64,000 nt of DNA, from contig VMFW01000001.1 of NCBI GenBank assembly GCA_007376265.1, forward strand, positions 2,455-66,454. Direction: 5' to 3'. Shown here one piece after another: positions 2,758-52,495 of the stretch (the stretch's first letter is position 1; every line of letters begins with the position of its first letter). Both the position numbers and the translations under genes were made by a program. The notes beneath the pieces were generated by a model. That model searched no databases. It was not told where the DNA came from and worked only from the letters and a program-made list of their open reading frames with translations. The stretch is from Parcubacteria group bacterium Gr01-1014_20 (GTDB lineage Bacteria; Patescibacteriota; Minisyncoccia; UBA6257; 2-01-FULL-56-20).

Positions 2758-2760
2758 CAA

Positions 2761-4146
2761 ATGACAATCACAAAAGAACAGGCTCAAACTCGATTTAAAA
2801 CCCTAACGCCTCTTTTGAAATCGGCACTTTTTTCGGTTCAAACCGCGGAGTCGATCGCAAGGGTGGCCGAACAAAACACCCTGCCAAAAGAAAAATCGAC
2901 CCAGATGGCGGAGGTGGCGGGGCTCGTAATACTAGGATTTCTACGACCGGAGGATGCGGCCCCAGAAATTCAATTGCGACTTGGTGTCCCCGCTCAATCG
3001 GCTAAGAGCATATCGGATTCACTGAGCAGTAAGATTTTTTCTCCTCTCAAGATTGAGATTGACCGAGCTTACCAACCGCTTGCCGGAGGCGACAAAAAAC
3101 CGACTTTTTCAACGGGTTCAACGTCAAAGCCAAGTATTGTGGAGGAGATAAAACAGCTTGAAAAATCTGGCGAAGAACTGGTGGGGGTTTTGAAAAGAAT
3201 GGAGAGTCCGGTTAAACCAGCTCAACCCCCGAGTTTTCCCGCAAGTTCGGGAATGGTGAAGACCCCGGCCGCACCCTTCATTCCGCCTCGGCCGTCAGCG
3301 GTCCCACTCCCTCCCTCTATTGAACTCAAAACAACTCCACCCCCACCCGTCCATGGACCAGTAATCCTCCACCGGGAATCGGAGGCTAACCCACTCGCAT
3401 CTGGCTTGGGTTTTAAGCTCGATATCCCCTCGGGAAAATTTTCGGATCGAGGCGTTACGCCCGAATCTACAGGGAAGATGGCGAGGTTAGAGGTTGGGGG
3501 AATGCAAAAATCGCCTGCCAATGCCACGGCTAGGACAGGCGTGGCGGGAGCGGGGAAAACCTTAAACTACGGCGGAAGTTTTGACCAAAATCCGAGACCA
3601 ACGGTGCCACCGCCACTCCCCATCAGGCCCACAGAGGAACCGTTTTCGAAGTCGGCTTTTGGGGGTTTGCCGCCCGTCATGCCTAAACCCTCTGTCTTGC
3701 CGCAAAGCCCTCAAGTGAACCTTCCGAACCCACCTCGACCCCAGCCACCTCGTCCCGAACAGGCGCCCCCCAACTTACCACCCCTGCCCGACAAAAAATA
3801 TCAAACTATGCCCAGGATAGAGAACAAACCCTCGCCCTTCGGCTGGATAAAATCTCTTTTTGGAAATAAGCAGCGACCCGTTCCTCCCGAAGTTAAGGTG
3901 GTGAACTTGAGCGCGGATAGTCGGCCAACCACCCCAAAAATAGAACTGCCCCAGCCCCAAAAACAAGGGCCGCCGCCAATACCCGCTTCTCCTCGTCCCC
4001 CGACCCCCCCCTTGCCCCCACCGCCAACCCCCGGCCCGAGGAGTAGCTCTCCGACAGTTGACATAAAACTTAAGGCGCCAGCTCCAACCCCGAACCAGAC
4101 CGAAGAAGTGATTGATTTGAGTTCGCTTACGAAGATAAGGAAGTAG
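2761..4146 (+). CDS. Hypothetical protein with a paralogous N-domain and a very proline-rich C-terminal ~250 aa (PPxP repeats)
   Basis: ATG start 4 nt after the previous stop. Long ORF whose proline codons create spurious antisense ORFs. Confidence 0.55.
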   Translation: MTITKEQAQTRFKTLTPLLKSALFSVQTAESIARVAEQNTLPKEKSTQMAEVAGLVILGFLRPEDAAPEIQLRLGVPAQSAKSISDSLSSKIFSPLKIEIDRAYQPLAGGDKKPTFSTGSTSKPSIVEEIKQLEKSGEELVGVLKRMESPVKPAQPPSFPASSGMVKTPAAPFIPPRPSAVPLPPSIELKTTPPPPVHGPVILHRESEANPLASGLGFKLDIPSGKFSDRGVTPESTGKMARLEVGGMQKSPANATARTGVAGAGKTLNYGGSFDQNPRPTVPPPLPIRPTEEPFSKSAFGGLPPVMPKPSVLPQSPQVNLPNPPRPQPPRPEQAPPNLPPLPDKKYQTMPRIENKPSPFGWIKSLFGNKQRPVPPEVKVVNLSADSRPTTPKIELPQPQKQGPPPIPASPRPPTPPLPPPPTPGPRSSSPTVDIKLKAPAPTPNQTEEVIDLSSLTKIRK

Positions 4147-4161
4147 TGGTATATTTTTTCT

Positions 4162-4671
4162 ATGCAGTTTCAGGTTCCTCAATTTATTGAAACGGAGGAT
4201 AAAATTGTTGGCCCGCTATCACTTCGGCAATTTATTTATATTGCGGTGGCGGGAGCGCTTTGCTTTATCTTGTTTTTCGCCCTTAAAACTTGGCTTTGGT
4301 TTATTTTTACAGTCTTGCTCGCGGCGATATCCTTTTCTTTAGCTTTTTTGAAGGTGAATGGACAACCCTTAGTAAGGGTGATTATGGCTGGAGCAAGATT
4401 TCTATGGAAGCCGCAAACTTTTGTTTGGCAGCCGGAACGGAAGACCCCTACGAGAGGGACTGACATGCAACCAGAAAAACCAGCTTTTTCGCTTCAAGAC
4501 ATCATGGCGGGGATGGCTCTTAGAAGCACGTGGCAGAAACTACAGACTGGCAGTCGGAAGTCACCAGCAGAAGAGGTGAAGCCGATTACTCAGAAAATAA
4601 AAGAAAGGTATCAAATTTTCGAGAAAATCACCGGCGAGCGCCAGGCAGCCAGGCGGGTAGATTACCGATAG
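4162..4671 (+). CDS. Small two-helix membrane protein, PrgI/VirB3-like candidate
   Basis: 169 aa with two adjacent TM helices near the N-terminus, positioned immediately upstream of VirB4 as in Gram-positive T4SS loci. Confidence 0.4.
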   Translation: MQFQVPQFIETEDKIVGPLSLRQFIYIAVAGALCFILFFALKTWLWFIFTVLLAAISFSLAFLKVNGQPLVRVIMAGARFLWKPQTFVWQPERKTPTRGTDMQPEKPAFSLQDIMAGMALRSTWQKLQTGSRKSPAEEVKPITQKIKERYQIFEKITGERQAARRVDYR

Positions 4672-4742
4672 CTGGGCATGGGTGAGTGTTTTTTTAAATA
4701 GAGAAACTTTGGGTTTCTCGATTTTGCTTTATAATAATTGGG

Positions 4743-5465
4743 ATGGCCTTAAACAAGCAATTATCAAATACGCAGGACCTGGTGGCGATTGAGGAGATTC
4801 ATGACAACACGGTTATCTTAAAAAGCGGGGCAATGCGACAAGTGCTTATGGTGGGCGGCATGAACACGGCTCTTAAATCGGAGGAGGAGCTGAATTTGAT
4901 TACGACGTCTTATCAGAATTTTCTGAACAGCCTCGATTTCTCGATTCAGATCATCGTTCACTCACGAAAGGTGAATATAGAAAAGTATCTTTCGGGCCTA
5001 GAGGAAAGGCGGCGGTTGGAACAGTCGGCTATTCTGCAAAGTCAGATTTCAGAGTACAAGGAGTTTATCGCTGGCTTTGTTCGAGAAAACGACATTATGG
5101 AGAAGACCTTTTTAGTGGTGGTGCCGTTTAGCCCGAGTGGCCTCGCCGGAGTAACGTCGGCTTCGGGAGTTGCGAAACTGTTTCCTTTCTTCGGTGCGAA
5201 AGGCGATGCGAAAGAGGTGAAGGTCAAAGAGGGGATGGAAAAGGAGGCGAGTTTCAAAGAGAGTTTGGGTCAGTTAAATCAAAGAGTTAACCAGATTGTC
5301 GAGGGCTTGCGAGCGATTGATCTAGACGCGGCAGTTCTAGGCGACGAGGAGCTGATTGAGCTTTTTTATAACTTCTACAATCCTGAAACAGTTGAGCGGG
5401 GAAACCTAAATGTCCCAGTCGAAAAAAACGAAGGCGTTGAAGGTGATGAGGTGGAGAACAAATAA
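4743..5465 (+). CDS. VirB4-family N-terminal domain encoded as a separate ORF
   Basis: Motif ...DNTVILKSGAMRQVLMVGGMNTALKSEEE... resembles the VirB4/TrbE N-terminus. TAA stop lies 2 nt before the ATG of the ATPase ORF, which is in a different frame. Confidence 0.6.
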   Translation: MALNKQLSNTQDLVAIEEIHDNTVILKSGAMRQVLMVGGMNTALKSEEELNLITTSYQNFLNSLDFSIQIIVHSRKVNIEKYLSGLEERRRLEQSAILQSQISEYKEFIAGFVRENDIMEKTFLVVVPFSPSGLAGVTSASGVAKLFPFFGAKGDAKEVKVKEGMEKEASFKESLGQLNQRVNQIVEGLRAIDLDAAVLGDEELIELFYNFYNPETVERGNLNVPVEKNEGVEGDEVENK

Positions 5466-5467
5466 TC

Positions 5468-7183
5468 ATGCCAGGAATCAATTTTAAAGAGACAAAAAAG
5501 ATAATCGCTCCAGCCGGAGTTCAGGTTGAGTCGAACTACCTGAAAATTGGAGATAAGTTTGTTAAAACTTTCTTTATATTTTCCTATCCGAGATATCTTT
5601 CGACAGGTTGGTTCGAGCCACTCATAAACTTGCCAAATATTTTTGATATTTCGATTTTTATTAACCCGGTAGACACCGGGATGGCACTCAAAAAACTCCG
5701 AAAGAAGGCTGCTCAAATCGAGTCGCAGATCAGCGACCAGCAGGAAAAGGGACTGGTGAGGGATCCCCTACTCGAGACGGCATTTCAGGATGTGGAGAGC
5801 TTAAGAGACGCTCTCCAACAAGCGCAAGAAAGGCTTTTTGAGATTGGGGTTTACGTTTCGATTTATGCCGACGATCTGGAGGCCTTGGCTAAACTTGAAA
5901 GTCGAATCGACTCTTTAATGGAAGCCAAACTTATATACATCAAGCCCGCGCTTTTCCAGCAGATTGAGGGGCTGTCTTCAATTTTGCCTCTCGCAAACGA
6001 TGAGGTGGATGTGACGACCCCGATGAACTCGGCGCCGATCTCTTCTTTTTTCCCGTTCGTTTCGGAGGACCTAAACTCCAGCCAGGGCATTATGTACGGC
6101 ATTAACCGTCATAACAACAACCTGATTATTTTTGATCGTTTCTCGCTCGAGAATGCAAATCAGGTGGTTTTTGCCAAATCTGGTTCTGGAAAATCCTATG
6201 CCACTAAGCTCGAGATAATTCGCTACTTGATGATGGGGGTGGATGTTCTCGTAATTGATCCGGAAAATGAATACAAAAAACTCTGTGAAGCGTTTGGGGG
6301 AAGTTTCTTCAATATATCTCTCTCGTCTCACGAACATATTAATCCTTTTGATGTGCCGGTTGTTCCAGAAGGAGAAACGCCAACGGATGTTCTCCGCTCT
6401 CACATAGTTAACCTAGCTGGGTTATTGAAGCTAATGCTTGGAAACATTAGCGTGGAGGAAGACGCGCTCTTGGATCGAGCAATCACTGAAACTTACGCCT
6501 CAAGAGAGATCGTGCCCGGAGAAGATTTCTCCGGAGCCCAACCACCGCTGCTTGAAGACTTGGAAACTGTGCTTCGGAACCTCGAAGGAGGGCGGGGAAT
6601 AGCCGAGCGGCTTTACAAATTTACGAAGGGAAGTTTCGCTGGGTTTGTGAATCAGCCCACCAATATTGATATTGGTAATCGCTTGATTGTTTTTTCTATC
6701 CGCGACCTTGAAGACGAACTTAGGCCGATTGCGATGTACATAATTCTTAACTTCATTTGGAATTTAACTCGGGCGCAACTTAAGAAGAGGTTGCTAATTA
6801 TAGATGAGGCTTGGTGGATGATGAAATATGAAGATAGCGCTACATTTCTTTTTGGGTTGGTGAAGCGGGCGAGAAAATATTACTTAGGGGTTTCCACGAT
6901 CACTCAAGACGTCGAGGATTTCTTAAGGTCCCCTTACGGGCGGCCAATTATTACTAACTCTTCCATTCAGCTACTACTCAAGCAGGCGCCGGCGACGATT
7001 GATATCGTGGCTAAGGCTTTTGGGCTTACTGAAGCCGAAAAAAATATGCTTCTTTCGGCGGAGGTGGGGACGGGGCTTTTCTTCGCGGGCCGGAAACACG
7101 TGGCTATCCAGATTATCGCTTCTTTCTTTGAAGACCAACTAGTGACAACCAACCCCCAGCAACTCCTAGAGGAAAAAGCTTGA
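5468..7183 (+). CDS. virB4: VirB4/TrbE/PrgJ-family conjugation-type ATPase (C-terminal ATPase portion)
   Basis: Walker A AKSGSGKSYATK, Walker B LLIIDEAWWMM, and a YPRYLSTGWFEPLINLPNIFDIS segment typical of Gram-positive VirB4. SD GAGGTGG lies upstream within the previous ORF. Confidence 0.85.
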   Translation: MPGINFKETKKIIAPAGVQVESNYLKIGDKFVKTFFIFSYPRYLSTGWFEPLINLPNIFDISIFINPVDTGMALKKLRKKAAQIESQISDQQEKGLVRDPLLETAFQDVESLRDALQQAQERLFEIGVYVSIYADDLEALAKLESRIDSLMEAKLIYIKPALFQQIEGLSSILPLANDEVDVTTPMNSAPISSFFPFVSEDLNSSQGIMYGINRHNNNLIIFDRFSLENANQVVFAKSGSGKSYATKLEIIRYLMMGVDVLVIDPENEYKKLCEAFGGSFFNISLSSHEHINPFDVPVVPEGETPTDVLRSHIVNLAGLLKLMLGNISVEEDALLDRAITETYASREIVPGEDFSGAQPPLLEDLETVLRNLEGGRGIAERLYKFTKGSFAGFVNQPTNIDIGNRLIVFSIRDLEDELRPIAMYIILNFIWNLTRAQLKKRLLIIDEAWWMMKYEDSATFLFGLVKRARKYYLGVSTITQDVEDFLRSPYGRPIITNSSIQLLLKQAPATIDIVAKAFGLTEAEKNMLLSAEVGTGLFFAGRKHVAIQIIASFFEDQLVTTNPQQLLEEKA

Positions 7184-7220
7184 GTGTGATCGGGAGCTTC
7201 AAGGTGGTAGAATAATATAT

Positions 7221-7784
7221 ATGGAAGACGAGCGTGATCATGAACCACTAATATCTCTGGTTGAGATTTTGATCATTGCCCCCTACATACTGGTAATCGA
7301 TATTATCGGAATACTTTTGGCGTTTTTGGCGTTGGATGATTTTTTCATTTTGGACATTTTGATGTTGCCGGTACTAGGATACCTCTGGTTTAAGGGGGTG
7401 CCGCTTACGAGATATGTTTCTTCGGCTATTGGGGAGGCGATACCGTGGATAGGAGATTTGCCGCTGTATTCGGTTGGTTTCATTTTAACGATTGTTGCGG
7501 ACAGAAACCCGAAGGTGGGGGCGGCCCTTGGAGCGGCCACGGGTTCAACGGCACTTGCCAAGGGGGCGGGAGGAGTCGCCAAGGGCGTGCAGGCGGAAAA
7601 AGGAGCGGTGGCTAAAGCTAAGGACTCGCTTCCAAAGAGGTCTCCGGCGACCCAACAGGCAACCGGACTGGAGGCCGATAGACCGCTTAGGGGACTAAAA
7701 GATACGATGGAGAAGGTTCCAGAATCAAATGTGGTTGATCTGCGCGGAGAGGAAGAGGACGATGAATACGGGATGGTGGCTTAG
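7221..7784 (+). CDS. Small membrane protein with a Gly/Ala/Lys-rich tail and acidic C-terminus
   Basis: Two or three TM helices. Its KGAGGVAKG-type motif resembles the one in the VirB6-like protein. Confidence 0.5.
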   Translation: MEDERDHEPLISLVEILIIAPYILVIDIIGILLAFLALDDFFILDILMLPVLGYLWFKGVPLTRYVSSAIGEAIPWIGDLPLYSVGFILTIVADRNPKVGAALGAATGSTALAKGAGGVAKGVQAEKGAVAKAKDSLPKRSPATQQATGLEADRPLRGLKDTMEKVPESNVVDLRGEEEDDEYGMVA

Positions 7785-38013: not shown

Positions 38014-38784
38014 ATGAAGTGGCCAGTTGAGCTCGCTTTAATCCGGCACGGCGAGTCTGAATTTAACGCGCTCAAAGCTTCTAAACGAGCGAGCGAGCTT
38101 TACGCTGAGTTTTGCCAGCACTTTAAGCGAGAGTGGGATTCTCCAAGAACTCGCGAGTTAGCCCTGCGAGTTCAGAAAGAGTTCTCGTTGGATTTTGGAG
38201 ACTACGATACTCCGCTTACGACTAAGGGTGCGGAGCAGGCAGAGCGAACCGCTTCGGAACTCTCTCAAAAAGTCAGTTTGCCCGACGTGGTTTTCGTTTC
38301 ACCCTATCTGAGGACTTGTCAGACTTTTAGCGCTATGAAAGCGCGCTGGCCGGATCTTGGTCGAGCCAAGATTTTGTTCGATGACCGAATTCGAGAACAA
38401 GAACACGGACTGTCTCTTCTCTATAATGATTGGCGGGTGATGCACGTTCTTCATCCAGAACAACACCACCTATGGGAGCGACAGGGGCGATATTGGTACC
38501 AGTTTCCCCAGGGAGAGAGTGTTTCCCAAGTGAGGGACAGAACGCGATCATGGATGACGACCTTGATTCGGGAATTTGCCGGCAAGCGAGTTTTAGCCAT
38601 TACCCACCATCTGACGATTCTTTCGCTTCGAGCGAATCTGGAGCGCTTGAGTCCAGAGCAGTTTACCAGGCTCGATGAGGAAGAGACACCGATTAATTGC
38701 GGAGTAACTGTTTACCTTGGAAATCCCAACCTCGGTAACGATGGCAGGCTTCAGTTGTCACTCTACAACCAGAAACTTTACTAG
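38014..38784 (+). CDS. Histidine phosphatase (phosphoglycerate mutase-like) family protein
   Basis: LALIRHGESEFN RHG motif. Confidence 0.8.
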   Translation: MKWPVELALIRHGESEFNALKASKRASELYAEFCQHFKREWDSPRTRELALRVQKEFSLDFGDYDTPLTTKGAEQAERTASELSQKVSLPDVVFVSPYLRTCQTFSAMKARWPDLGRAKILFDDRIREQEHGLSLLYNDWRVMHVLHPEQHHLWERQGRYWYQFPQGESVSQVRDRTRSWMTTLIREFAGKRVLAITHHLTILSLRANLERLSPEQFTRLDEEETPINCGVTVYLGNPNLGNDGRLQLSLYNQKLY

Positions 38785-40279: not shown

Positions 40280-40493
40280 GTTTTTAATGATGGCGGTTTT
40301 TGCCCCTTAATGCAATAAAAAGTCCCCGCGTTTAGCGCGGGGACGAGTGGTCGAGGCTCAGTCAAAAAATGGGGGAAAAACTTTAAGGTGAGGGTTACCT
40401 GGGAATGGTTTTTGACTCAAGCGGGGCGACCACCTCCGCTCGGGATTCTAGCATTTCTTGTTTAGGAGAGTAAATAGTTTTAAAGTTATGTTT

Positions 40494-42200
40494 ATGAAGG
40501 CCGAAATAACGAAGTTGGTTGAAAGAGTGGCTGGGACTGATCAGTTTGAGATTTTGGTTCCCGAACGAGATAGTTTTGGTCACTATTCGACTAACGTGGC
40601 GATGAGGATGGCTAAGCAGTCCGGTAGAAATCCGGTGGAGTTGGCGCGAGAGCTCATCGTGAGAATTTCGGCTGGGGCACCCAGGGGGGTGTTTCTAAAA
40701 ATCGAGGCGGCTGCTCCGGGGTTCATCAATTTTTGGCTTACAAAGGAGTTTTTGCAAAAGGAAGGATTTAGGGCCTTGGGGAACAAGAGCTTTGGCAAAA
40801 CAAATCTAGGGAGGGGTAAAAAAGTGATTTTTGAGTATTCGGATCCAAACATTGCAAAAAGAATGCACGTGGGACATTTAAGGGCGACGATTATCGGTGA
40901 CGCACTTGCGAATATTTATGAGTTTTTGGGGTACAAGGTGGTCCGATGGAATTACATCGGGGATTGGGGGACGCAGTTTGGGAAGATGATCGTGGCTTAC
41001 AAGCTTTGGGGAAACAAGGTAGCCGTTCAAAAAAATCCAATTGAAGAACTGCAGAGGCTGTATGTGAAGTTTCACGAAGAGATGGAGAGAAGTCCGGATT
41101 TGGAAGAACGGGGTCAGGAGGAATTTAAAAAGCTAGAAGAGGGAAATGGGGGAAACAAGAAACTTTGGGAATGGTTTAAGAGGGAATCGCTCCGGGAGTT
41201 TGATAGAATCTATCAGCTCTTAGGGGTGAAGTTCGACGTGACGATTGGTGAGGCCTTTTATGAAAAGGGCTTAAAAAAGCTCGTGGCTGATTTAAAAAGT
41301 AAGGGGGTGGCTAAAGAGAGTGAGGGGTCGCTCATCGTGACTCTAGAAAAATTTGGTTTGCCACCCGCCCTAGTTCAGAAGTCTGACGGGGCAAGTTTGT
41401 ATATGACCCGCGACATCGCAAACATCAAGTACCGCTTGGCGAAATATAAACCCGTAAAAATGTTTTATGTAGTCGGGAACGAACAGTCGTTGCATTTTGA
41501 GCAACTGTTTAAGGTGGCAGAAATTTTGAAGTTGAATAAAGCAGAGCTGAAGCACCTGAAGTTTGGTTTAGTTTTGGATGAAGATGGGCAAAAGTTTGCG
41601 ACGCGCGAGGGGCGGGTGGTTTTGTTGGACGACTTGATAAATAAGGCGATGGCCTTGGCGCTTGAGATAGTGGATAGGAAAAATCCTGGTTTATCAAAAA
41701 AAGATAAAGAGAAAGTTGCTCGCGCGGTGGGAATTGGAGCTTTGAAATATAACGACCTCAAAGAAAACCGGCATTCGGATGTGACGTTTAACTGGGGGCA
41801 GATGTTGAATATTTCGGGTAACAGCGGGCCGTACCTTCAGTATACGTACGCAAGGTTGGCAAGTATCTTGGGAAAAAACAAAAAACAAAAAACAAATAAC
41901 AAAAAGACCAAACCAGATTTTAAGTTGTTGGATAAAAAAGAAGAATTAGATTTGATCAGAAAAGTTTTACAGTTTCCGGATGCCATCTCAGAAGCCCACG
42001 ATTCGCTTTTGACCAGTAATTTTTCGAACTATCTTTACGAGCTGGCTAGCTTGGCGAATAGATTTTATGAGACGACCCCGGTTATAAAAGAGCCAGATGT
42101 TGCCCGGCGGGGGGCGAGGGTCGGCCTTATTCAGGTCACCAACCGAGTCATTAAAGCCGGTTTGGGACTACTTGGAATCAGGGCGCTTGGTAGTATTTAG
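40494..42200 (+). CDS. argS: Arginyl-tRNA synthetase
   Basis: HVGH class-I motif; N-terminus MKAEITKLVERV aligns with the ArgRS add-1 domain. The track start at 40458 is TTG. Confidence 0.9.
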   Translation: MKAEITKLVERVAGTDQFEILVPERDSFGHYSTNVAMRMAKQSGRNPVELARELIVRISAGAPRGVFLKIEAAAPGFINFWLTKEFLQKEGFRALGNKSFGKTNLGRGKKVIFEYSDPNIAKRMHVGHLRATIIGDALANIYEFLGYKVVRWNYIGDWGTQFGKMIVAYKLWGNKVAVQKNPIEELQRLYVKFHEEMERSPDLEERGQEEFKKLEEGNGGNKKLWEWFKRESLREFDRIYQLLGVKFDVTIGEAFYEKGLKKLVADLKSKGVAKESEGSLIVTLEKFGLPPALVQKSDGASLYMTRDIANIKYRLAKYKPVKMFYVVGNEQSLHFEQLFKVAEILKLNKAELKHLKFGLVLDEDGQKFATREGRVVLLDDLINKAMALALEIVDRKNPGLSKKDKEKVARAVGIGALKYNDLKENRHSDVTFNWGQMLNISGNSGPYLQYTYARLASILGKNKKQKTNNKKTKPDFKLLDKKEELDLIRKVLQFPDAISEAHDSLLTSNFSNYLYELASLANRFYETTPVIKEPDVARRGARVGLIQVTNRVIKAGLGLLGIRALGSI

Positions 42201-42275: not shown

Positions 42276-42848
42276 ATGGGATTGTTAAGGCCGAGGAAGC
42301 CGAATTGGGCAGACAAGATGCGGGCTAAGAAAAAATTTAGGAGCGAGAGGAGGAGGGCGGCGGTCCACATTGACATGACGCCAATGGTGGACATTGGCTT
42401 CTTGCTTTTAATTTTCTACATGTCGACCACCCAGTTTAAGCCGCCGGAACAGAAAGACGTTACCTTACCTCGTTCGACTTCAGAGCGAAAGTTGCCCAAA
42501 GAGAACTTTATCACGGTTACAGTAACCAAAGAGGACTCAATTTACGTTGATTACGTGATCAAGGTGAGGGAATTTGACCCTGCAACGGGAGACTCAATTG
42601 ACGTGCCGTCTAGGGAGTACATCGCTACTTCGCCCGAAAGAGTGGGGAGGGAAGTAAAAAGGATGCAGGCTAACGCTTTTAATAAAGGCATCCGTGAGCT
42701 CTACTTGGCAATTAAGGGCGATCGGGACGCATCTTTTGGAGCTGTTGAGAAGGTGATGAAGTCTTTGCAGGAAGAGAACCTGAATAGCTTCCAGGTCGTT
42801 ACTGACCTTGATCGGTCTTTGAAGCGGACAACGGTTGGTGGTCCTTAG
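42276..42848 (+). CDS. ExbD/TolR-family protein
   Basis: MTPMVDIGFLLLIFYM TM segment typical of ExbD/TolR; no ExbB/TolQ/MotA partner in the window. Confidence 0.6.
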   Translation: MGLLRPRKPNWADKMRAKKKFRSERRRAAVHIDMTPMVDIGFLLLIFYMSTTQFKPPEQKDVTLPRSTSERKLPKENFITVTVTKEDSIYVDYVIKVREFDPATGDSIDVPSREYIATSPERVGREVKRMQANAFNKGIRELYLAIKGDRDASFGAVEKVMKSLQEENLNSFQVVTDLDRSLKRTTVGGP

Positions 42849-42996: not shown

Positions 42997-45900
42997 ATGT
43001 TCGTTAAAGATTTAAAAGAATTTAATTTGCCCAAAACCGAGGAAAAGGTTTTGGAGTACTGGAAGAAAAACCAAATTTTCGAAAAAACACTCGCTTTAAG
43101 GAAACCCACCTCCGCTAAAGCTTCGAAGGGCAAAAAACACTTCGTGTTTTTTGAGGGGCCACCGACGGCGAACGGCCGGCCTGGGATCCACCACGTTTTG
43201 GCGCGAGCTTTTAAGGACGTCATTTTACGGTATAAAACCATGCGGGGTTTTAACGCGCCGCGGCGGGCGGGGTGGGACACGCACGGACTGCCAGTAGAGA
43301 TTCAGGTTGAAAAAGAGCTGGGCTTGAAGTCGAAAAAAGATATTGAAAAATTTGGGATCGCGGAGTTTAACAAAAAGTGCAAGGAATCGGTCTGGAAATT
43401 TAAGGATGAGTGGGAGAGGTTAACCGAGCGGATGGGTTTTTGGTTGGATATGAAAGACCCTTATGTCACTTACGAGAAAGATTATATTGAAACTTTGTGG
43501 TGGATCATCGCGCAGTTTTGGAAGAAGAAGCTTTTATACAAAGGAAACCGAATAGTGAATTGGTGCACCCGTTGCGGAACAGGACTTTCTTCACACGAGA
43601 TGGCGCAGGGGTACAAGGAAGTGACGGATAATTCGGTTTATGTAAAGTTTAAACTGAAGAAGGGCCAGAAGGTCGGAAAAGATTTTTCGACAAACGATAA
43701 AACCTATATTTTATCTTGGACAACCACGCCCTGGACGTTGCCCGGTAACGTAGCGCTCGCAGCTGGAGAGAAGATACGTTACGTCTTTATTGAAGCCGAT
43801 GGAGAAGTTTTGGTTTTAGCTAAAGAAAGGATGGAGGCGGTGGGAGTTCAGGGAAGAATTATTAAAGAAACGATGGGCAAAGATTTGGTAGGTTTGTCGT
43901 ACCAACCGCTTTTTGAGGTGGACCCACTCAAGAGCAAAAATTCTTACAAAGTTTATGCGGCGGATTTTGTGACGACGACGGATGGAACAGGTGTGGTGCA
44001 TACGGCGGTCATGTACGGAGAGGATGACTACAAGTTGGGCGTGAAGATGGGTTTGACCCAACACCACACCGTGGACGTGGCAGGGAAATTTACAAAAGAC
44101 GTAAAAGTTCTGGCGGGTATGTACGTCAAAGATAAAAAAACTGAAGAAAAAATTCTTAATTATCTAAAAGCTAGAAGTTATCACCTGAAAACTGAACCAC
44201 ACAAACATGACTATCCGCATTGCTGGCGATGTTCGACGCCTCTGCTTTATTATGCGAGGTCGTCTTGGTTTGTGGCGATGTCGAAGCTCAAAAAAGAACT
44301 TTTAGCTAGTAACAATAAGATCAATTGGACGCCAGAGCACGTTAAAAATGGAAGGTTTGGCGAGTGGCTTCGAGAGGTTAAAGATTGGAATTTTTCGCGG
44401 GAAAGATACTGGGGGACGCCCTTGCCGATTTGGGAGTGTAGCAAATGCGGGATTACGGAAGCAATTGAGAGTTTAGCTGATTTAGATGGAAAAACCGGAG
44501 GGGCGAGAAATCGGTATTGGGTGATGAGACACGGACAATCCGAGGCGATGATGGTGGGCGTGATTGACGCTGGTAAAGGAAAGTATCGTTTGACTGACCT
44601 GGGACGAAAACAAGCGGAAAAAACCGCCAAGAGGTTGGCCAAGGAAAAAATTGATTTAGTAATTAGCTCCGATGTTTTGAGGACTAAAGAGACGGCGCAA
44701 ATTGTGGCCAGGGTTTTGGAGGTGGGGAAGCCGGTTTTAGATGAGCGTCTTCGCGAGATAAATTTGGGGGTTTTGGCCGGAAAATCTGTTCGGGAGTATT
44801 CGGAGATTTTGCCTACGCTCGATTCCAGGATTTTAGGAAAACCAGAAGGTGGGGAGTCGATAACAGATGTGAGAACCAGGATGTGGAGTTTCGTTCAGGA
44901 GATTGAGAAGAAGTATAAAGGCAAAAATATTTTGCTAGTTAGTCACGAGTACCCGATATGGATTTTAAGTCAGGTGATGAATGGCTGGACGAATCAGGAA
45001 CTCATTCTAGAAAAAACTAAAGGGGGAAAAAACTATATTGAGGCTGGTGAGGTTTGGGGGGTGGCGCATAAGGTTTTGCCGAGAGATAATACCGGTCTGG
45101 TTGATTTGCACCGACCGTATATCGACGAGATTTTCCTAAAGTGTTCGAAGTGCGAAGGAAAAATGAAGAGGGTAAAAGAATTGGCGGACGTCTGGTTTGA
45201 TTCTGGGGCGATGCCGCTAGCACAGTCTCATTTTCCATTCGACCGTGCAAAAAGTTCCAAGTCACAAATAACAAATAACAAAGAACACGTTGATTATCCG
45301 GCGGACTATATTTGCGAGGCAGTGGATCAGACGCGGGGATGGTTTTATACGCTTTTAGCGATAGCCACGGCTCTCGGTAAGAACGCGCCTTACCGAAATG
45401 TAATTTCGCTCGGACATATCAACGACAAACACGGGCAAAAAATGTCCAAATCAAAAGGAAACATTGTTGATCCGTGGATGATGGCAGAAAAATATGGCAT
45501 GGATGCCGTGCGTTGGTACATGTATGCTGCGACACCGCCGGGAGAGCCAAAAAATTTTGACGAGCAAGAGCTTCTTAAAACCTACAGGCGGATGCATTTA
45601 ATTTTGTGGAACTCCCTTCTTTTCTATAAAACATACGCCGTTTCTGGGTCCAGTCGTAAGTTGGGGTTGCGGCCGAAGTCTAAGAATTTGCTTGATTTAT
45701 GGATGCTCTCTCGGCTTGATGAGGCGATAGTCAGAGCGACTAAAGCGATGGATCGATATGATATTCGGGGGGCTGCGCTCGAGATTGAAAAACTGGTGGA
45801 CGATCTTTCTAGATGGTACATTCGTCGCTCGCGACGAAGGTTGCAACGACCGGAGAGTAAAGCCGATTTTGAAGCTTGTGCGTCTACGCTTCAGCATGTC

Positions 45901-46600: not shown

Positions 46601-47023
46601 CTACTCGGCTAGTTCCGGGTAGTTGTCGATGACAAGACTGGGGCAATCAACAAAGTCCTTGTCTTCGTCGAAGAACGGCTGGCCGCCGAAGCAGACCATT
46701 TCCATTTCGGTCAGAGGATATAGGGTGTGAGCCTCGAGTCGATTGAAGCAGACGACCGAGTTTGGTTCGAACGGCACTTTTTGGGGAGGCGAAGTTATAT
46801 TCCCCTTGGGATCAACTTCGGCTACAAGAAAATACCCACTTCCGGAGAGGATGAGGAAATGTTCGCTTTTGAAGCGGTGAGCGTGTTTTCCAAGTGGAGC
46901 TTTCGTCTGGCGGATTTCGAATCTTTGATAAACAAAGCCGCCTGGAATTGAGTTCAATTCACGAATCGTGCGTCTCTCGTCGCTCATTCGGGGATCGGTG
47001 ACTGAGACTTGTCCTGTTATCAA
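46601..47023 (-). CDS. Cupin-fold protein
   Basis: Two-His cupin-like motifs (GKHAHRF ... EAHTLY). Confidence 0.45.
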   Translation of the reverse strand: MITGQVSVTDPRMSDERRTIRELNSIPGGFVYQRFEIRQTKAPLGKHAHRFKSEHFLILSGSGYFLVAEVDPKGNITSPPQKVPFEPNSVVCFNRLEAHTLYPLTEMEMVCFGGQPFFDEDKDFVDCPSLVIDNYPELAE

Positions 47024-47095
47024 GTTACCTCCTTTGGGTGGTGGTTTTTTATTAAAGAACTCAGATAAGTCAATTTAGAGCTTACAGATTGATTT

Positions 47096-47129
47096 GTCAA
47101 AGAAAAAGCGGCTCGTTTGACGAGCCGCT
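47096..47129. terminator. Bidirectional terminator
   Basis: aagcggctcg tttga cgagccgctt followed by ggggttttt. Confidence 0.65.
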
Positions 47130-47137
47130 TGGGGTTT

Positions 47138-47923
47138 TTACGGATGTTTTACAACCGAGTAGTGTTGCATATATTCGTCATAGGAGGTATAGCTTTCGTC
47201 CATGCGGGTGGCTTTGACATCGGGGATCAGCGGGAATCGATCGGTTTCCGGGAAGCCAAACCTTCTGAAGAAATCTCGGAGAATTCGATCCTGACTCCAT
47301 CCGGTTTCTAGACGCTTAGCAACAATCTCATCAAGCGAAGTTATGACGCTGATTGACTCGCTTGAGAGGTTGCCAAACTTCTCTTGAATCCTGACGAGCT
47401 TAGCCCAAACGTCGTCGTCCAATCCGGCCATCCAGACGGAGGCAAAACCTTGAACGTCGCCGGTTTTGTTTTCCGGGTCGGCTCGATCAAAAACGATTCT
47501 TGGGACAAACTCGATGTAATCACCGAGATGAAAGAGTGAGTCGATAATAGCCCTCTTGACGGCTTCGAGATCATCCAGATCTCCCTCGCTTGGATCAACA
47601 TTCTTCCGGTCGACAGTTCGAGTTGAGACTGCGTGGCCAAAGATTTGGGCGAGCTCGGCGTCGTCAACTGGGCCGAGCGGTCTTTTGACCGAGAGCTCTT
47701 CCTTGATTTCCCGAATGAGCGTGCCCTTGGGACTTCCGTCGTTAGCGGCAGCGGTTCCGAGCCAATTGCCTCCCATGCAGAGAAGCTTGAGTGCGAAAGC
47801 CTTCTTAGGATAAGTGGCGTCTTTCATATCGAGGAAGACGTCTCTCGGATTGCTTTTCCGATAGGTGATGCAAACCGCCGAAAGGGTTTGAACCTCCGGA
47901 CGGCCGTCGGCTGCGGTGATCAA
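47138..47923 (-). CDS. Nudix-like protein with a degenerate Nudix box; paralog of ORF 48823-49623
   Basis: GGNWLGTAAANDGSPKGTLIREIKEEL is a Nudix box with E replaced by D and a 1-aa insertion. Clear paralogy with ORF 48823 (ITSLDEIV, VFL-E-KD motifs). Confidence 0.5.
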   Translation of the reverse strand: MITAADGRPEVQTLSAVCITYRKSNPRDVFLDMKDATYPKKAFALKLLCMGGNWLGTAAANDGSPKGTLIREIKEELSVKRPLGPVDDAELAQIFGHAVSTRTVDRKNVDPSEGDLDDLEAVKRAIIDSLFHLGDYIEFVPRIVFDRADPENKTGDVQGFASVWMAGLDDDVWAKLVRIQEKFGNLSSESISVITSLDEIVAKRLETGWSQDRILRDFFRRFGFPETDRFPLIPDVKATRMDESYTSYDEYMQHYSVVKHP

Positions 47924-47947
47924 TCATGACCTCCTTTTTGAAGCGGG

Positions 47948-48775
47948 TTAGTCGTTCAGGATTGAGAGTAGTTGGTTGTGGATTTTGCCGTTGGTGGCCA
48001 AGGTGCGATTGGCGTAGCACTTCCAGTCGTTACCCCGAAAGTCTGTTACGCGACCCCCGGCTTTTTTCAGAATAAGTCCGGAGGCGGCGGTGTCGAAGGG
48101 ATCAGGTTGGCCGATAATGCCATCGATTTCACCGCTAACCATTTTCATGAAGTAGGCGGTTGAGGAGGTTGGGATTTGACCATGAATGCCGATTCGCCGC
48201 ATTTTTTCCATGATTTGCCAGAAAGGATTTTCGGGTGGGTTGGCGAGTCCAGGTTTTCCATAGTCGAAGGCGACGTTGCAGCGCGTGAGTTCAGTTTTTA
48301 CGCTGACTTTTGGGTGGACGATTTTGTCAGAACCATCCTCGGTCATTTCGGTGGGAGTGTCTATAGTAGCGCTGAAGAGTTGTCTTGCGATGGGTAGGTA
48401 GACTACTCCAGCCACAGAGACACCGTTTTCGATCAGGGCGATCGAAACGCCCCACTCTGGGTTACCTTTGTAATAGCTGATTGTGCCGTCTAGGGGATCG
48501 ATGACCCAGCGCAGCCCTTCCTGACTAAACTCGCCACCAGCCTCTTCGGAGTAGGCAGGAATTTCTGGGAATGCTTCACCAAGAATCTCGAGAATTTTGC
48601 TTTCTGATTTAAGGTCTTGCTGGGTGACGAAGTCTTTGTAGTTTTGGTCGATGGATTCAGCCTCGAGTTGCTCGTCGCGAAGCATTTTGCCAGCGGCGAG
48701 AGCGGCCTCTTTCATTGGGGAGATGTAGTCGTTTTTCACCTGTTTTTTGTCTCCTTTGGGTTTTTTCGATTTCAA
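47948..48775 (-). CDS. Inositol monophosphatase/CysQ/SuhB-family phosphatase
   Basis: WVIDPLDGT motif. Confidence 0.8.
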   Translation of the reverse strand: MKSKKPKGDKKQVKNDYISPMKEAALAAGKMLRDEQLEAESIDQNYKDFVTQQDLKSESKILEILGEAFPEIPAYSEEAGGEFSQEGLRWVIDPLDGTISYYKGNPEWGVSIALIENGVSVAGVVYLPIARQLFSATIDTPTEMTEDGSDKIVHPKVSVKTELTRCNVAFDYGKPGLANPPENPFWQIMEKMRRIGIHGQIPTSSTAYFMKMVSGEIDGIIGQPDPFDTAASGLILKKAGGRVTDFRGNDWKCYANRTLATNGKIHNQLLSILND

Positions 48776-48822
48776 TAAACTGGTCCAATATTGCGTTATC
48801 GTAAGATTTTTGTCAAGAAAAC

Positions 48823-49623
48823 TTAGCGAGGGGTCAACGGATTTTTTTGTACGTCGTATTTTTCCAAGTACTTTTGGTAGGAAGCCAATGGCGCTCCCAA
48901 AAACTTACTAGTAACACCTTGGTCGAGCTTAATACTCTTGGCTTTGTTTAGGCGGTGGCTTAAGAAAAATTTTTGGATAGCTCGGTCATGACCGAAGACG
49001 AATTTCGCCCCTTTCTTTACGATTTCATCTAGTGAGGTTATGAGAGTCCTTGATTCGTTCGAAAGGTTTTCGAATTTAGCTTGAAGGGTTACTAGAATTT
49101 GCCAGTCTTTTTCGTTGAGAGCGATAGACCAAGAAGAGCATAGAACGACAAAGTTCGTCTTTTTGTCTCGTTTGTTTCCCGTGAGTAGTGTTTTCGGGAG
49201 GGTGTGCATAAAGTCACCCAACGCCTTGGGCGATTTCGTTAAAACTTTCTTGAGTTCACGCAGGAGTCTTAAATCCTTTTCGCTGGGGGCAACTTTTTTT
49301 CTTGGCGTGACGTAAGATTTTTTATCTTTTGTAATATTGAGAAGTTTGAGTTCGAGGGTAGTTGCATTTTTTTTGATGAGAGATATTTCTTCTTCTATTT
49401 CTCGTTTTAAGGTTTGGGGAGTACCTAGGTCTTTCTTTGCGGCTACGCCGATCCAGTTTCCTCCTATGAGGCATAGCCGATTTCGAAAAAGTTTTACCGG
49501 GTGAGTTACGTCTTTTTCCTCGAGAAAAACTTCGGCTGGATTTGACTCACGATAAATAATGCCAACACTTGCGATGTTGTTAACTTTCGGTTTTGCGCTG
49601 GCGTTGTCGTTTCTCTCCAGCAT
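48823..49623 (-). CDS. Nudix-like protein (Lys-rich, AT-rich paralog of 47138-47923)
   Basis: GGNWIGVAAKKDLGTPQTLKREIEEEI. Confidence 0.5.
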   Translation of the reverse strand: MLERNDNASAKPKVNNIASVGIIYRESNPAEVFLEEKDVTHPVKLFRNRLCLIGGNWIGVAAKKDLGTPQTLKREIEEEISLIKKNATTLELKLLNITKDKKSYVTPRKKVAPSEKDLRLLRELKKVLTKSPKALGDFMHTLPKTLLTGNKRDKKTNFVVLCSSWSIALNEKDWQILVTLQAKFENLSNESRTLITSLDEIVKKGAKFVFGHDRAIQKFFLSHRLNKAKSIKLDQGVTSKFLGAPLASYQKYLEKYDVQKNPLTPR

Positions 49624-50747
49624 TAAAGAGTGAGACCAGTTCTTTTCTTAACCTCAAGTATCTTTTTGTCGGCAATTTTACCGGCTTTTTTGGATCCTTG
49701 AGTGAGGGTGGTCGAAAGAGTGCTCGGCTTTGCGAGCAAGGATTTTTTATTTTTGCGATAGTCAGCGAAGTAGGTTATGGCAAGTTTGGCGAGGGAAGAT
49801 TTGAGTTCAGAGTAGGTTTTTCCAGAGAATTCTTTTTCGAGTTTCTCGGTGTTTTTGTCGCTGAGGCTCGAGTAAATCTTTAAAAGATTCGAGATGGCTG
49901 GTTTGGTTTCGGGATTGAACTTAACTTCGTTGCCGGAGTCGGTTACCGCGCGTTTGATTTTGGATTCTATCACCTCGGGGGAGTCATCTAAGAAAAGGCA
50001 GGTTTCGGGTTTGGACTTAGACATTTTTTTAGAAGGGTCGCCCAGACTCATGACTCTCGGGATTTCGGTGTGAAGGCCTTGGGGTTCGGTGAAAACTTTC
50101 CCGAACTTGGAATTGAATTTTCGAACCAGGGCGCGGGTGAGCTCTAGGTGCTGGTCTTGATCGTCGCCTGTGGGGACAAACTTCGCGTCGTATAAAATGA
50201 TGTCGGCGGCCATCAAAATTGGATAAGTGAAGAGGCCTGCATTTGTATTTTCCCGCGCCTCTTTGGCCTTATCAAAATATTCTATAGACTCGTTGAGTTT
50301 TTTTATGAAATCGTCTGTTTTAACTGGGGTACCCGGTTTAAAGTCTAGTCGAGCGTTTTCTAGTATTTTTCGTGCTTCAGCATAGTTTTTTGACATGCCT
50401 GCTTTATCTTTAAATTGCGTCATCCTTTCAAGTTCACCCATTGGGGTAATGGTGTTTAAAATAAAAGCTAGTTCAGAGTGGGCAGGGATTTGGGACTGCT
50501 GGAAGATGACGGATTTTTTGGGATCCAAACCGGCGGCGAGATAGTCGGCGGTGAGTTCCAAAATCTGCTTGGCTTTTTCTTCGGGATTGAACTCTTCGGT
50601 TAAGGAGTGAAGATCGGCGATGAAAAAGTAGCACTCATACTTGTCGGAGTTTTGGAGGTCAACGAAATTTTTCAGGGCGCCGAGGTAATTTCCAAGATGG
50701 AGGCGACCCGAAGGTTGGATGCCAGATAGTAAGCGAGGCCTCGACAT
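49623..50747 (-). CDS. trpS: Tryptophanyl-tRNA synthetase
   Basis: GIQPSGRLHLGNYLG HIGH-like motif and KMSKS. Confidence 0.9.
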   Translation of the reverse strand: MSRPRLLSGIQPSGRLHLGNYLGALKNFVDLQNSDKYECYFFIADLHSLTEEFNPEEKAKQILELTADYLAAGLDPKKSVIFQQSQIPAHSELAFILNTITPMGELERMTQFKDKAGMSKNYAEARKILENARLDFKPGTPVKTDDFIKKLNESIEYFDKAKEARENTNAGLFTYPILMAADIILYDAKFVPTGDDQDQHLELTRALVRKFNSKFGKVFTEPQGLHTEIPRVMSLGDPSKKMSKSKPETCLFLDDSPEVIESKIKRAVTDSGNEVKFNPETKPAISNLLKIYSSLSDKNTEKLEKEFSGKTYSELKSSLAKLAITYFADYRKNKKSLLAKPSTLSTTLTQGSKKAGKIADKKILEVKKRTGLTL

Positions 50748-50764
50748 AAATTTAATTAAAAACT

Positions 50765-52495
50765 TTAAACTTCGATGATGACGGGCAAGATCATGGGCCG
50801 ACGTTTAGTTTTAGTATACAAAAGTTGGCCGACTTGGTCGCGGATCAGAGTTTTCAAATAATCGGCTTCGAGGGGCTGATAGTTTGGGAGGCGGGCGACA
50901 AGGTTTCTGATTTTTTTTCTTATTTCTTCTAGAATGTCCTGGTTCTCCTTGATGTAGATAAAACCGCGCGAGATAATGTCTGGACTTTTTAGGAGCTTGT
51001 TGTGTTTGCGATCGATGGTAGCAATGATCACGACCATCCCCTCCTGAGAGAGGGCCCGCCGATCTCGGAGAACTACCTCTTCGACATCTCCCACTCCAAG
51101 ACCGTCAACCATGACGTAAGAAGCAGGAACGGTTTCACGAGTGATAGAGAAGCTGTCTTTGGTGATCTCGGACACCTGGCCGTTATCGAGGAGGAAGATA
51201 TTTTTTCGGGGGATGCCGATTTCCACTCCGGATTGGGCGTTAATTGAGCGTTTGTAAAAGTAGCCGTGAATGGGCACCAAGAATTTGGGATTTAAAAGTT
51301 TCATGGCAAGTTTTAAATCTTCCTTCGGGGCGTGACCAGAGGCGTGGATGTCGATGATATCAGAGGTGTAAATGATTGCGCCCTGACGAGCGAGATTATC
51401 TTTTAGGCCTTGAACGCTGCGTTCGTTGCCGGGAATTACCGAGGCTGAAAACATGACGGTGTCGCCGGGTTTGATTTGAATGTGGCGGTGCTCGCCGTTG
51501 ATTATTTTCATAAGCGAGGCGTTTGATTCACCCTGCGCGCCAGTTGAGAGGATTAAAATCTTGTTGTCTTTGTATTTATGAATCTCCTCGACGGGAATGA
51601 TTGTGTCTGGGTCGGATTTAATGAAGCCGAGGCGTTTAGCGATCTCAATATTGGCTTTCATGGAGTATCCAGAGAGGGCGACTTTGCGGCCGAGTTTTTC
51701 AGAGATTTTAATGACCTCGGCGATGCGAGTAAGAACCGAAGCGAACATGGCAACGATGATCCGACCCTCGGCTCCCTTGATCAACTCCTCCAGGTTTTTT
51801 TCGACAGTGCGTTCGGACTCGGAGCGACCAGGGCGGTCGGCATTGGTACTTTCTATCGTGAAGACGTGGACACCTTGTTTGCCGATTCTTTCAAGATCTT
51901 GGGTTTCGGTCGGATTGCCCTTGGCGTCGTATTCAATTTTGAAGTCGCCGAGGTTAACAACGTTTCCCACTGGAGTTCGAAGATTGACGGCGGTTGACTC
52001 TGGGATGGTGTGGATGATACCGAAAAATTCTGCCTCGAAATGATTGGAAAGTTTTACAACGTCGCCGTTTTTGACGACGATGATGTTTAGTTTATCTCGA
52101 TTCGGGAAGTCCTCTTGTCTTTTTTCTATGAGAGCTTTAGTAAGCGAGGTGCAGTAGATTGGTGGGTTGCCGATTTTTCCCATGATGTAGGGAATGGCGC
52201 CGATGTGATCGTAGTGGCCGTGGGTGATAATGAGGGCGTGGACGTTAGCTTTTTTGGATTCTAAGTAAGAGACGTTTGGAATAATAAAATCGATACCGGG
52301 AGTTTCTTCTTCCGGGAACTGCAAACCAGCATCGATAGCGACGATTTCATTTTTATATTCGAAGAACATCATGTTCCGACCGATTTCTTCGAGGCCCCCA
52401 AGCGGAACAAAGCGAAGGTGGGGTTCGCTCTTGTTGGTAGATTTTTGATCAACCGGGGGTTTAATTCTCGGTCGAGGATAAGTTTTTCTGATCAT
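50765..52495 (-). CDS. rnj: Ribonuclease J
   Basis: ALIITHGHYDHIGAIPYI MBL motif, with beta-CASP and a C-terminal domain. Confidence 0.9.
   Translation of the reverse strand: MIRKTYPRPRIKPPVDQKSTNKSEPHLRFVPLGGLEEIGRNMMFFEYKNEIVAIDAGLQFPEEETPGIDFIIPNVSYLESKKANVHALIITHGHYDHIGAIPYIMGKIGNPPIYCTSLTKALIEKRQEDFPNRDKLNIIVVKNGDVVKLSNHFEAEFFGIIHTIPESTAVNLRTPVGNVVNLGDFKIEYDAKGNPTETQDLERIGKQGVHVFTIESTNADRPGRSESERTVEKNLEELIKGAEGRIIVAMFASVLTRIAEVIKISEKLGRKVALSGYSMKANIEIAKRLGFIKSDPDTIIPVEEIHKYKDNKILILSTGAQGESNASLMKIINGEHRHIQIKPGDTVMFSASVIPGNERSVQGLKDNLARQGAIIYTSDIIDIHASGHAPKEDLKLAMKLLNPKFLVPIHGYFYKRSINAQSGVEIGIPRKNIFLLDNGQVSEITKDSFSITRETVPASYVMVDGLGVGDVEEVVLRDRRALSQEGMVVIIATIDRKHNKLLKSPDIISRGFIYIKENQDILEEIRKKIRNLVARLPNYQPLEADYLKTLIRDQVGQLLYTKTKRRPMILPVIIEV

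Follow-up and report, generated by a model that had tools for sequence, protein, structure and literature searches.

A histidine phosphatase nested in the zinc-knuckle region of a parcubacterial isoleucyl-tRNA synthetase and its linkage to tRNA enzymes

What is a complete phosphatase doing inside an aminoacyl-tRNA synthetase, and does its placement there reflect a role in tRNA charging? This question is raised by a 64,000-nucleotide stretch of DNA (the window) from the metagenome-assembled genome of Parcubacteria group bacterium Gr01-1014_20 (contig VMFW01000001.1), in which the gene ileS encodes an isoleucyl-tRNA synthetase (IleRS) of 1188 residues. An initial annotation, made from the letters of the window, had proposed that this protein contains a complete, catalytic-looking histidine phosphatase in its zinc-knuckle region, known as CP3, and Pfam matches, sequence motifs and alignment to solved structures all bear this out. 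The corresponding GenBank record (TSC82868.1) is annotated as 'isoleucyl-tRNA synthetase' only, with the phosphatase unmentioned. Aminoacyl-tRNA synthetases are among the best-studied of all enzymes, and their accessory domains, be they editing modules, tRNA-binding elements or membrane anchors, have each revealed new biology. In the literature that we searched, we found no description of a phosphatase in or beside IleRS and nothing relevant on synthetase insertions in the Candidate Phyla Radiation (CPR) or on pyrophosphatase in Parcubacteria.

The phosphatase occupies an insertion of approximately 204 residues between the two CxxC halves of CP3, a position at which solved IleRS structures have a loop of about 10 residues, with residues 498 and 702 of the window protein aligning to residues 478 and 488 of the Thermus thermophilus enzyme (1ILE) and to residues 474 and 486 of Priestia megaterium IleRS2 (8C8W). 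The motifs quoted in the initial annotation are all where it had placed them, starting at residues 475 (PLPIWEC), 506 (RYWVMRHG), 561 (LRTKETAQI), 618 (GGES), 646 (LLVSHEYPIW), 703 (DLHRPYID) and 715 (KCSKCEG), but its estimate of about 30-40 residues for the canonical spacing between PLPIWxCxxCG and DLHRPxID was too high, the figure being nearer 20-25. The expected profile match is also present, as Pfam His_Phos_1 (PF00300) covers residues 508-668 at 122.2 bits (cutoff 21.7; E=2.8e-35) and matches the translated interval 44455-45100 by itself with E=1.1e-36. His_Phos_1 is the sole Pfam family in the insert, in which no Hint, splicing, homing-endonuclease or transposase domain was found. When modeled alone with AlphaFold2, the insert folds as an autonomous unit, with a predicted local distance difference test (pLDDT) score of 93.7 and a predicted template modeling (pTM) score of 0.90; in the model of full-length IleRS (mean pLDDT 88.4, pTM 0.84) it retains values mostly of 88-96, with some 10-residue blocks at approximately 77-80. 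The alpha/beta fold typical of phosphoglycerate mutases is recovered in the AlphaFold2 model, and a Foldseek search returned Rv2419c, PspA, PhoE, Rv3214 and CobC with TM scores of 0.66-0.76 and sequence identities of 23-29%, the probability being 1.00 for PhoE, PspA and Rv2419c.

In this fold, two arginines and another histidine hold a terminal phosphate in place for attack by the nucleophilic histidine, and a glutamate protonates the leaving group. The catalytic core of branch 1 of the superfamily is complete in the sequence of the insert, comprising the RHG histidine, both arginines, the glutamate acid and the second histidine, and the catalytic residues are conserved among nested copies (Table 1), with R511, H512, R562 and H650 equally so in free-standing ones. 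Comparison of non-saturated pairs yields ratios of nonsynonymous to synonymous substitution rates (dN/dS) of 0.10-0.16 for the insert and 0.02-0.15 for the flanking IleRS core. Judged from its sequence, the insert appears to be an autonomous, selectively maintained branch-1 histidine phosphatase at the tip of the CP3 hairpin, and it is probably active as a phosphatase. It appears to be a member of branch 1 but of no named equivalog, since the NCBIfam cutoffs were missed for dPGM_arch (95 against 225 bits), cobC (74 against 163), PspA (70 against 350), GpmB (66 against 261) and SixA (32 against 74.5), and even the best NCBIfam match, to the bifunctional RNase H/acid phosphatase family NF005567, reached 102 bits against a cutoff of 326. 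Basic charge proved uninformative as a sign of RNA binding, with median isoelectric points of 7.2 for nested and 8.7 for free copies in the representative set and 9.1 for the 77 inserts from genome loci. None of the PADLOC anti-phage models matched the insert, the separate histidine phosphatase of the window (Table 1) or the one free-standing relative that was compared.

The host protein is itself a bona fide IleRS by the equivalog model TIGR00392, which it matches at 832.7 bits (cutoff 621.4). Its best matches in the Protein Data Bank are the IleRS2 structure 8C8W and 1ILE, with matches to IleRS1 enzymes being much weaker. Pfam identifies tRNA-synt_1, split in two by the insertion, along with Anticodon_1 and, at residues 1068-1187, DUF5915; the latter is the C-terminal region of type-2 enzymes, present here instead of the bacterial C-terminal zinc-binding domain. 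The CP1 editing motifs WTTTPWTLPGN and GTGVVH are intact beside the GIHH and KMSKS signatures, and with the anticodon-binding domains also intact the protein looks, from its sequence, like a functional type-2 IleRS. The GXHH form of the HIGH motif in IleRS2 is a variant that has been linked to mupirocin hyper-resistance (PMC10485003). The window protein scored approximately 740 bits against the NCBIfam exception model for the mupirocin-resistance enzymes MupA and MupB, which has a cutoff of 1900. The zinc-binding cysteines of CP3 are kept in most of 76 relatives with the same insertion, and where they are lost both pairs go together. CP3 of Thermus IleRS bears a zinc motif, and the topology of this region varies among IleRS enzymes, marking it as structurally plastic (PMC7191050).

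Table 1. Coordinates of the features discussed in the text, numbered from the first nucleotide of the window.
Feature	Positions	Strand	Basis
Separate His_Phos_1 protein, 256 aa	38014..38784	+	Pfam E=3.3e-25; 25% identity to the insert
argS, conserved upstream neighbor	40458..42200	+	Pfam tRNA-synt_1d, DALR_1, Arg_tRNA_synt_N; synteny in related loci
ExbD/TolR-like gene between argS and ileS	42276..42848	+	Pfam ExbD, E=4e-22
ileS, type-2 isoleucyl-tRNA synthetase with nested phosphatase, 1188 aa	42997..46563	+	Open reading frame; TIGR00392, Pfam and PDB matches
Class I signature, non-canonical GIHH (aa 63-66)	43183..43194	+	Sequence
First CxxC of the CP3 zinc knuckle (C481, C484; WECSKCG)	44437..44448	+	Counterpart of the zinc site in CP3 of the T. 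thermophilus enzyme by alignment
Nested histidine phosphatase domain with linkers, aa 499-702 (204 aa)	44491..45102	+	No counterpart in solved IleRS; Pfam; AlphaFold2; Foldseek
RHG motif: R511, nucleophile H512, G513	44527..44535	+	R511 and H512 98% conserved (n=77 nested domains)
R562, second phosphate-binding arginine (LRTKET)	44680..44682	+	100% conserved (n=77 nested domains)
E587, predicted general acid (LREINLG)	44755..44757	+	89% conserved (n=77); aligns with the family's invariant glutamate
H650, second catalytic histidine (LLVSHE)	44944..44946	+	100% conserved (n=77 nested domains)
CP3 resumes: DLHRPYID and second CxxC (C716, C719)	45103..45153	+	1ILE/8C8W alignment restarts at aa 702
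Disordered loop, aa 751-763 (site B, empty in the window; lysine/serine-rich)	45247..45285	+	pLDDT <50 in the full-length AlphaFold2 model
KMSKS motif (aa 815-819)	45439..45453	+	Sequence

Is this architecture a peculiarity of one genome? To address this question, we scanned one genome per GTDB species with an alignment of inserts and analyzed the best 80 loci. At least 518 relatives of the insert were present in the species genomes, and in 76 of the best 80 loci the domain lies within an intact IleRS open reading frame of approximately 1150-1300 residues at exactly the same position. A 77th nested copy (locus L075) is in a frameshifted ileS, and the remaining three loci have the phosphatase as a separate gene. 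The L075 gene, at 5545-7337 of its contig, is spread with its nested phosphatase over three frames in a genome assembled from long reads, a pattern expected from sequencing frameshifts or a pseudogene. Named lineages include Liptonbacteria, Wolfebacteria, Jorgensenbacteria, Campbellbacteria, Azambacteria, Nealsonbacteria, Nomurabacteria, Adlerbacteria and Yanofskybacteria, among others, all of them belonging to Patescibacteria/Parcubacteria, with a few record titles being generic or non-CPR. An exhaustive HMMER search of 1.84 billion representative proteins supplied its best 150 matches, which together with 14 proteins found earlier made a collection of 164, including 89 with the phosphatase embedded in IleRS and 68 free-standing proteins of about 190 residues; a word-indexed protein search gave 16 matches only and understates the spread relative to the pattern scans and the exhaustive search. 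The initial annotation had called a phosphatase embedded in a synthetase highly unusual, which holds for the literature but not for nature, where the architecture is the common state in many lineages of Parcubacteria.

The relatives with a free gene are informative as to where the nested domain may have come from. In loci L071, L076 and L065, the phosphatase is a free gene of 189-207 codons, 38-42% identical to the insert at the protein level, that sits directly downstream of argS and either 5-17 nucleotides upstream of an insert-less ileS or overlapping it by 4 nucleotides. This arrangement recurred when metagenomes were scanned with free-standing members as seeds. Of the 80 loci thus obtained, 46 have the free gene directly upstream of ileS, mostly with argS directly upstream of the phosphatase, and in 21 it lies within ileS, to which argS is in most cases immediately adjacent; eight contigs end right after the phosphatase, leaving 72 readable loci, in 67 of which the phosphatase adjoins or lies within ileS. 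No free and nested copies were found together in the genome and metagenome loci examined. No N-terminal fusion of the phosphatase to IleRS occurred among the matches either, although the intergenic gap is only 5-30 nucleotides, which suggests that the position of the phosphatase on the synthetase matters. Taken together, we are confident of the architecture and of the linkage of this phosphatase to tRNA enzymes, and the most likely origin of the nested copies is a neighboring gene, located between argS and ileS, that was captured into a loop of ileS. The order in the window is argS, an ExbD/TolR-like gene and ileS; the ExbD/TolR-like gene is outside the system and fills the slot that the free phosphatase gene has in relatives. 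The separate phosphatase at 38014-38784, which had been described as a standalone paralog, is indeed a His_Phos_1 protein but a distant family member and not a close paralog. A recent duplication of its gene into ileS is ruled out by an identity of only 25%. Relative to the IleRS-associated subfamily, it carries about 35-45 additional residues immediately behind its RHG motif.

Next to its origin, the history of the block after capture can be assessed from the disagreement between the insert and its host. Two groups of relatives have inserts that are alike in their identity to the window copy (44-50%), in contrast to their N-terminal IleRS cores, which are 59-66% identical in one group and approximately 46% in the other. 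Identities of insert and core are poorly correlated (r=0.33), compared with a correlation of 0.84 between the two halves of the core. The pattern is sharpest in individual pairs. Between loci L120 and L124, the flanks reach 93-100% identity in most windows of 30 residues and 80-90% in a few, but the block consisting of CP3 plus phosphatase is only 56-76% identical, with dN and dS both raised there; the opposite holds for L005 and L011, with a backbone at 44-49% and a CP3-plus-phosphatase block at 63-76%. These comparisons indicate that the CP3-phosphatase block has a history separate from that of the IleRS backbone, with recombinational exchange as the simplest explanation. Parsimony on neighbor-joining trees without support values required nine changes between nested and free states on the domain tree and seven on the IleRS tree, giving a rough indication that several switches between the two states have occurred.

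The association extends beyond the tip of CP3, which we term site A (residues 498/703 in window numbering), to three other IleRS loops. Site B lies at residues ~752-757, after DVWFDSG..HFPF; site C at residues ~882-897, between the KMSKS/stem-contact region and the anticodon-binding domain; and site D at residues ~430-442, in CP2. Two tandem phosphatase copies at site A are present in three proteins (P0058, P0113 and P0121), copies at sites A and B in P0055, copies at sites A and C in P0038, and four phosphatase stretches, site D included, in P0032. Sites B and C are occupied, with none at site A, in P0108, of which identical proteins are encoded on contigs of up to 1.06 Mb. The additional copies retain RHG/RHA and SH motifs. 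Residues 751-763 form the main disordered internal segment of the window IleRS, and this loop coincides with the position of a second phosphatase elsewhere. Two further tRNA enzymes are joined to the same subfamily at their C-termini. One is the arginyl-tRNA synthetase ArgRS (a single open reading frame at 2881-5067 of locus L097, a metagenome contig, and independently the 689-residue cluster representative P0105). The other is TsaC/Sua5, an enzyme of t6A synthesis (P0124 and P0174-P0176), with the fusion gene at 1964-3292 of locus L161 having cca, tgt, a queuosine-salvage gene and truD as neighbors. The parcubacterial phosphatase subfamily is, in sum, tied to tRNA enzymes in several alternative states, namely free, nested, multi-copy and fused to ArgRS or TsaC.

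What might a phosphatase do in such company? IleRS, ArgRS and TsaC have in common that they make an adenylate from ATP, release pyrophosphate (PPi) and serve tRNA. In IleRS, CP3 comes directly after the DWN.SR.RYWG segment; in the yeast enzyme this segment, in the linker between CP2 and CP3, borders the pocket that accommodates the tRNA CCA end and reveromycin (PMC7955072). On the strength of these shared features and of this location, we propose that the phosphatase would act on something bound or released by its partner enzymes, with IleRS still performing aminoacylation and editing. The insert would hydrolyze a terminal phosphate through a phospho-histidine, with H512 as the nucleophile, R511, R562 and H650 holding the phosphate and E587 as the acid. 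Members of the superfamily in yeast strip terminal phosphates from DNA and ATP (PMC2737285). We consider a functional coupling of the phosphatase to tRNA charging or modification probable, and we lean towards a nested phosphatase acting on a by-product or on the tRNA end as the overall explanation.

Two candidate substrates follow from this proposal. The first is a nucleotide by-product, PPi or AMP and above all PPi, the removal of which would make activation irreversible at its source; hydrolysis of a phosphorylated nucleotide by-product was already among the roles listed in the initial annotation and is one of the two best candidates, although we advance it tentatively. The second, which we regard as doubtful, is the 3' end of a tRNA that bears a 2'/3'-phosphate or a pyrophosphate and would have to be cleared before charging. 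In its most ambitious form, possible but speculative, the proposal is that the phosphatase would serve as a third catalytic site of the synthetase, working in cis to destroy PPi at its release (possibly replacing a missing soluble pyrophosphatase) or to unblock the tRNA CCA end, as a swappable CP3-phosphatase cassette repeatedly installed in IleRS. An aminoacyl-tRNA synthetase would then have a built-in step of a new kind, serving to control quality or to drive the reaction. Other roles that had been raised fare less well, as Ap4A, lacking a terminal phosphomonoester, is chemically an unlikely substrate for this fold, and no specific support was found for a role in alarmone metabolism or proofreading.

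Several observations weigh against a dedicated role in tRNA charging. To our knowledge, no branch-1 histidine phosphatase hydrolyzes inorganic pyrophosphate or removes 3'-phosphates from RNA, and soluble pyrophosphatase is normally enough. In Escherichia coli, the HD domain of the CCA-adding enzyme already heals tRNA ends. The same domain is retained by the CCA-adding enzyme encoded beside the TsaC fusion, so that another enzyme for tRNA-end healing would be less needed. The TsaC fusion is in any case weaker evidence because TsaC of CPR bacteria is also fused to MGMT, TruB, 2H-phosphoesterase, MPG, Nudix and GNAT domains. Five of the 80 metagenome loci are exceptions to the linkage, with another open reading frame or a spacer, and not directly ileS, downstream of the phosphatase. 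Lastly, the closest structural relatives of the insert are metabolic phosphatases.

This last point leads to the strongest competing explanation, a metabolic phosphatase of the PhoE/PspA/Rv2419c type that has no link to aminoacylation and was placed at or in ileS for constitutive co-expression in a reduced genome. The nearest folds and profiles are indeed metabolic, albeit with no equivalog cutoff reached; CP3 is a plastic module that tolerates insertions; RNase H/acid phosphatase (NF005567) is a precedent for unrelated pairing; and TsaC of CPR bacteria is a promiscuous fusion hub. This explanation would nevertheless have to account for a subfamily that hardly ever occurs apart from tRNA enzymes, as in the 67 of 72 readable metagenome loci, that has entered four or more IleRS loops and is maintained at 2-4 copies, that is retained across deeply different IleRS backbones, and that was not seen among the matches as an N-terminal fusion across a gap of 5-30 nucleotides. 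We consider hitch-hiking unlikely.

More improbable is a self-protection role, in which the domain would be a protein phosphatase that reverses phosphorylation of the synthetase by a toxin kinase. The KMSKS region of class I synthetases is a phosphorylation target of HipA/HipT-type kinases, and PGAM-family protein phosphatases exist, namely SixA, PGAM5 and Sts-1, the first of which gave a weak profile match to the insert. IleRS and ArgRS are both class I synthetases, insertion sites B and C lie on either side of the KMSKS region along the sequence, and the small cap in the AlphaFold2 model suggests an open active site. Against this, the TsaC fusion does not fit, no linked kinase was present in any locus examined, no match was obtained in the defense and toxin libraries, and we know of no toxin that phosphorylates IleRS. 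A pseudo-enzyme, serving as a non-catalytic structural or tRNA-binding spacer, has a parallel in the structural CAAD insertions of cyanobacterial synthetases and could appeal to E587 being conserved in only 89% of copies, but it is very improbable given the 98-100% conservation of R511, H512, R562 and H650, with free-standing copies conserved likewise, the dN/dS of the insert and the isoelectric points of nested copies, which are not shifted to the basic side relative to free ones. The chance that the insertion is an assembly chimera, the alternative that the initial annotation had left standing, or an intein-like or otherwise mobile selfish element is negligible: the window does come from a metagenome-assembled genome and the insertion is large and precisely bounded, but around 100 independent assemblies, some with contigs as long as 1 Mb, share the same architecture, the GC content of the insert equals that of its gene (0.460 and 0.459, with 0.469 for the window), no Hint, endonuclease or transposase domain is present, and the domain, which keeps the reading frame, evolves under purifying selection.

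Beyond the genes considered above, the region downstream of ileS contains, on the reverse strand at 46601-49623, three open reading frames of 140, 261 and 266 residues without a Pfam match, located between ileS and a gene for a synthetase of the Trp/Tyr type, with an inositol-monophosphatase-family gene at 47948-48775 in the same interval. The Trp/Tyr-type class I synthetase (49623-50747, reverse strand; 374 residues) matches its Pfam family in two stretches, the best covering only residues 161-327, and may contain another lineage-specific insertion or a divergent N-terminal half. RNase J is encoded beyond it at 50765-52495.

These observations concern uncultivated bacteria that form a very large group and have minimal genomes. 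A conserved phosphatase with an intact catalytic set, located at ileS or within IleRS, ArgRS or TsaC would imply an unrecognized phosphate-removing step tied to tRNA charging, and the alternation of free and nested states in related bacteria points to an undescribed partnership between phosphatase and tRNA charging. The system also provides a natural example of the capture of a neighboring gene into a protein loop, complete with repeated sites, copy expansion and cassette exchange, that may be useful for the understanding and engineering of domain insertions. The protein should be easy to express, and the proposed functions are directly testable in vitro.

How, finally, does the window protein compare with known systems? 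A synthetase with a lineage-specific accessory domain is a known kind of protein, but the nested phosphatase is undescribed in the literature that we searched; new here are also the free gene between argS and ileS, the other IleRS sites with two to four copies, the fusions to ArgRS and TsaC, and the separate history of the CP3-phosphatase block. With the type-2 enzymes 1ILE and 8C8W, the window protein shares collinear homology over its full length (E ~1e-227), including the Rossmann fold, CP1 editing domain, zinc-bearing CP3, type-2 C-terminal domains and GXHH signature, from which it is distinguished by some 204 extra residues that amount to a second enzyme at the CP3 tip. That second enzyme resembles the PhoE-like branch-1 phosphatases (Rv2419c; PspA, 4IJ5; PhoE, 1H2E; CobC; Rv3214) in fold, in its Arg-His-Arg-Glu-His set and in its length of about 200 residues, yet differs in its low identity to them, in reaching no equivalog cutoff and in belonging to a subfamily bound to tRNA enzymes. 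RNase H/acid phosphatase of the Rv2228c type likewise joins a nucleic-acid enzyme to a branch-1 histidine phosphatase, but as an end-to-end fusion and not a nested one, with a different partner and a cutoff far above the score of the insert. The family NF040702 (ileS_w_GNAT), kept separate at NCBI, is an IleRS with an extra enzymatic domain, in that case GNAT, to which the window protein scores 316.6 bits against 1999 and for which it has no Pfam match. The closest evolutionary analog is CAAD, a membrane anchor derived from the free Curt1 family that class I synthetases of cyanobacteria have captured repeatedly at internal positions, with a neighboring free gene in related species and suspected transfer between synthetases (PMC4893482). 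In both cases a stand-alone family has been recurrently captured at several internal sites of class I synthetases, but CAAD is a non-catalytic anchor distributed over seven synthetases, whereas the nested phosphatase is an enzyme concentrated on IleRS.

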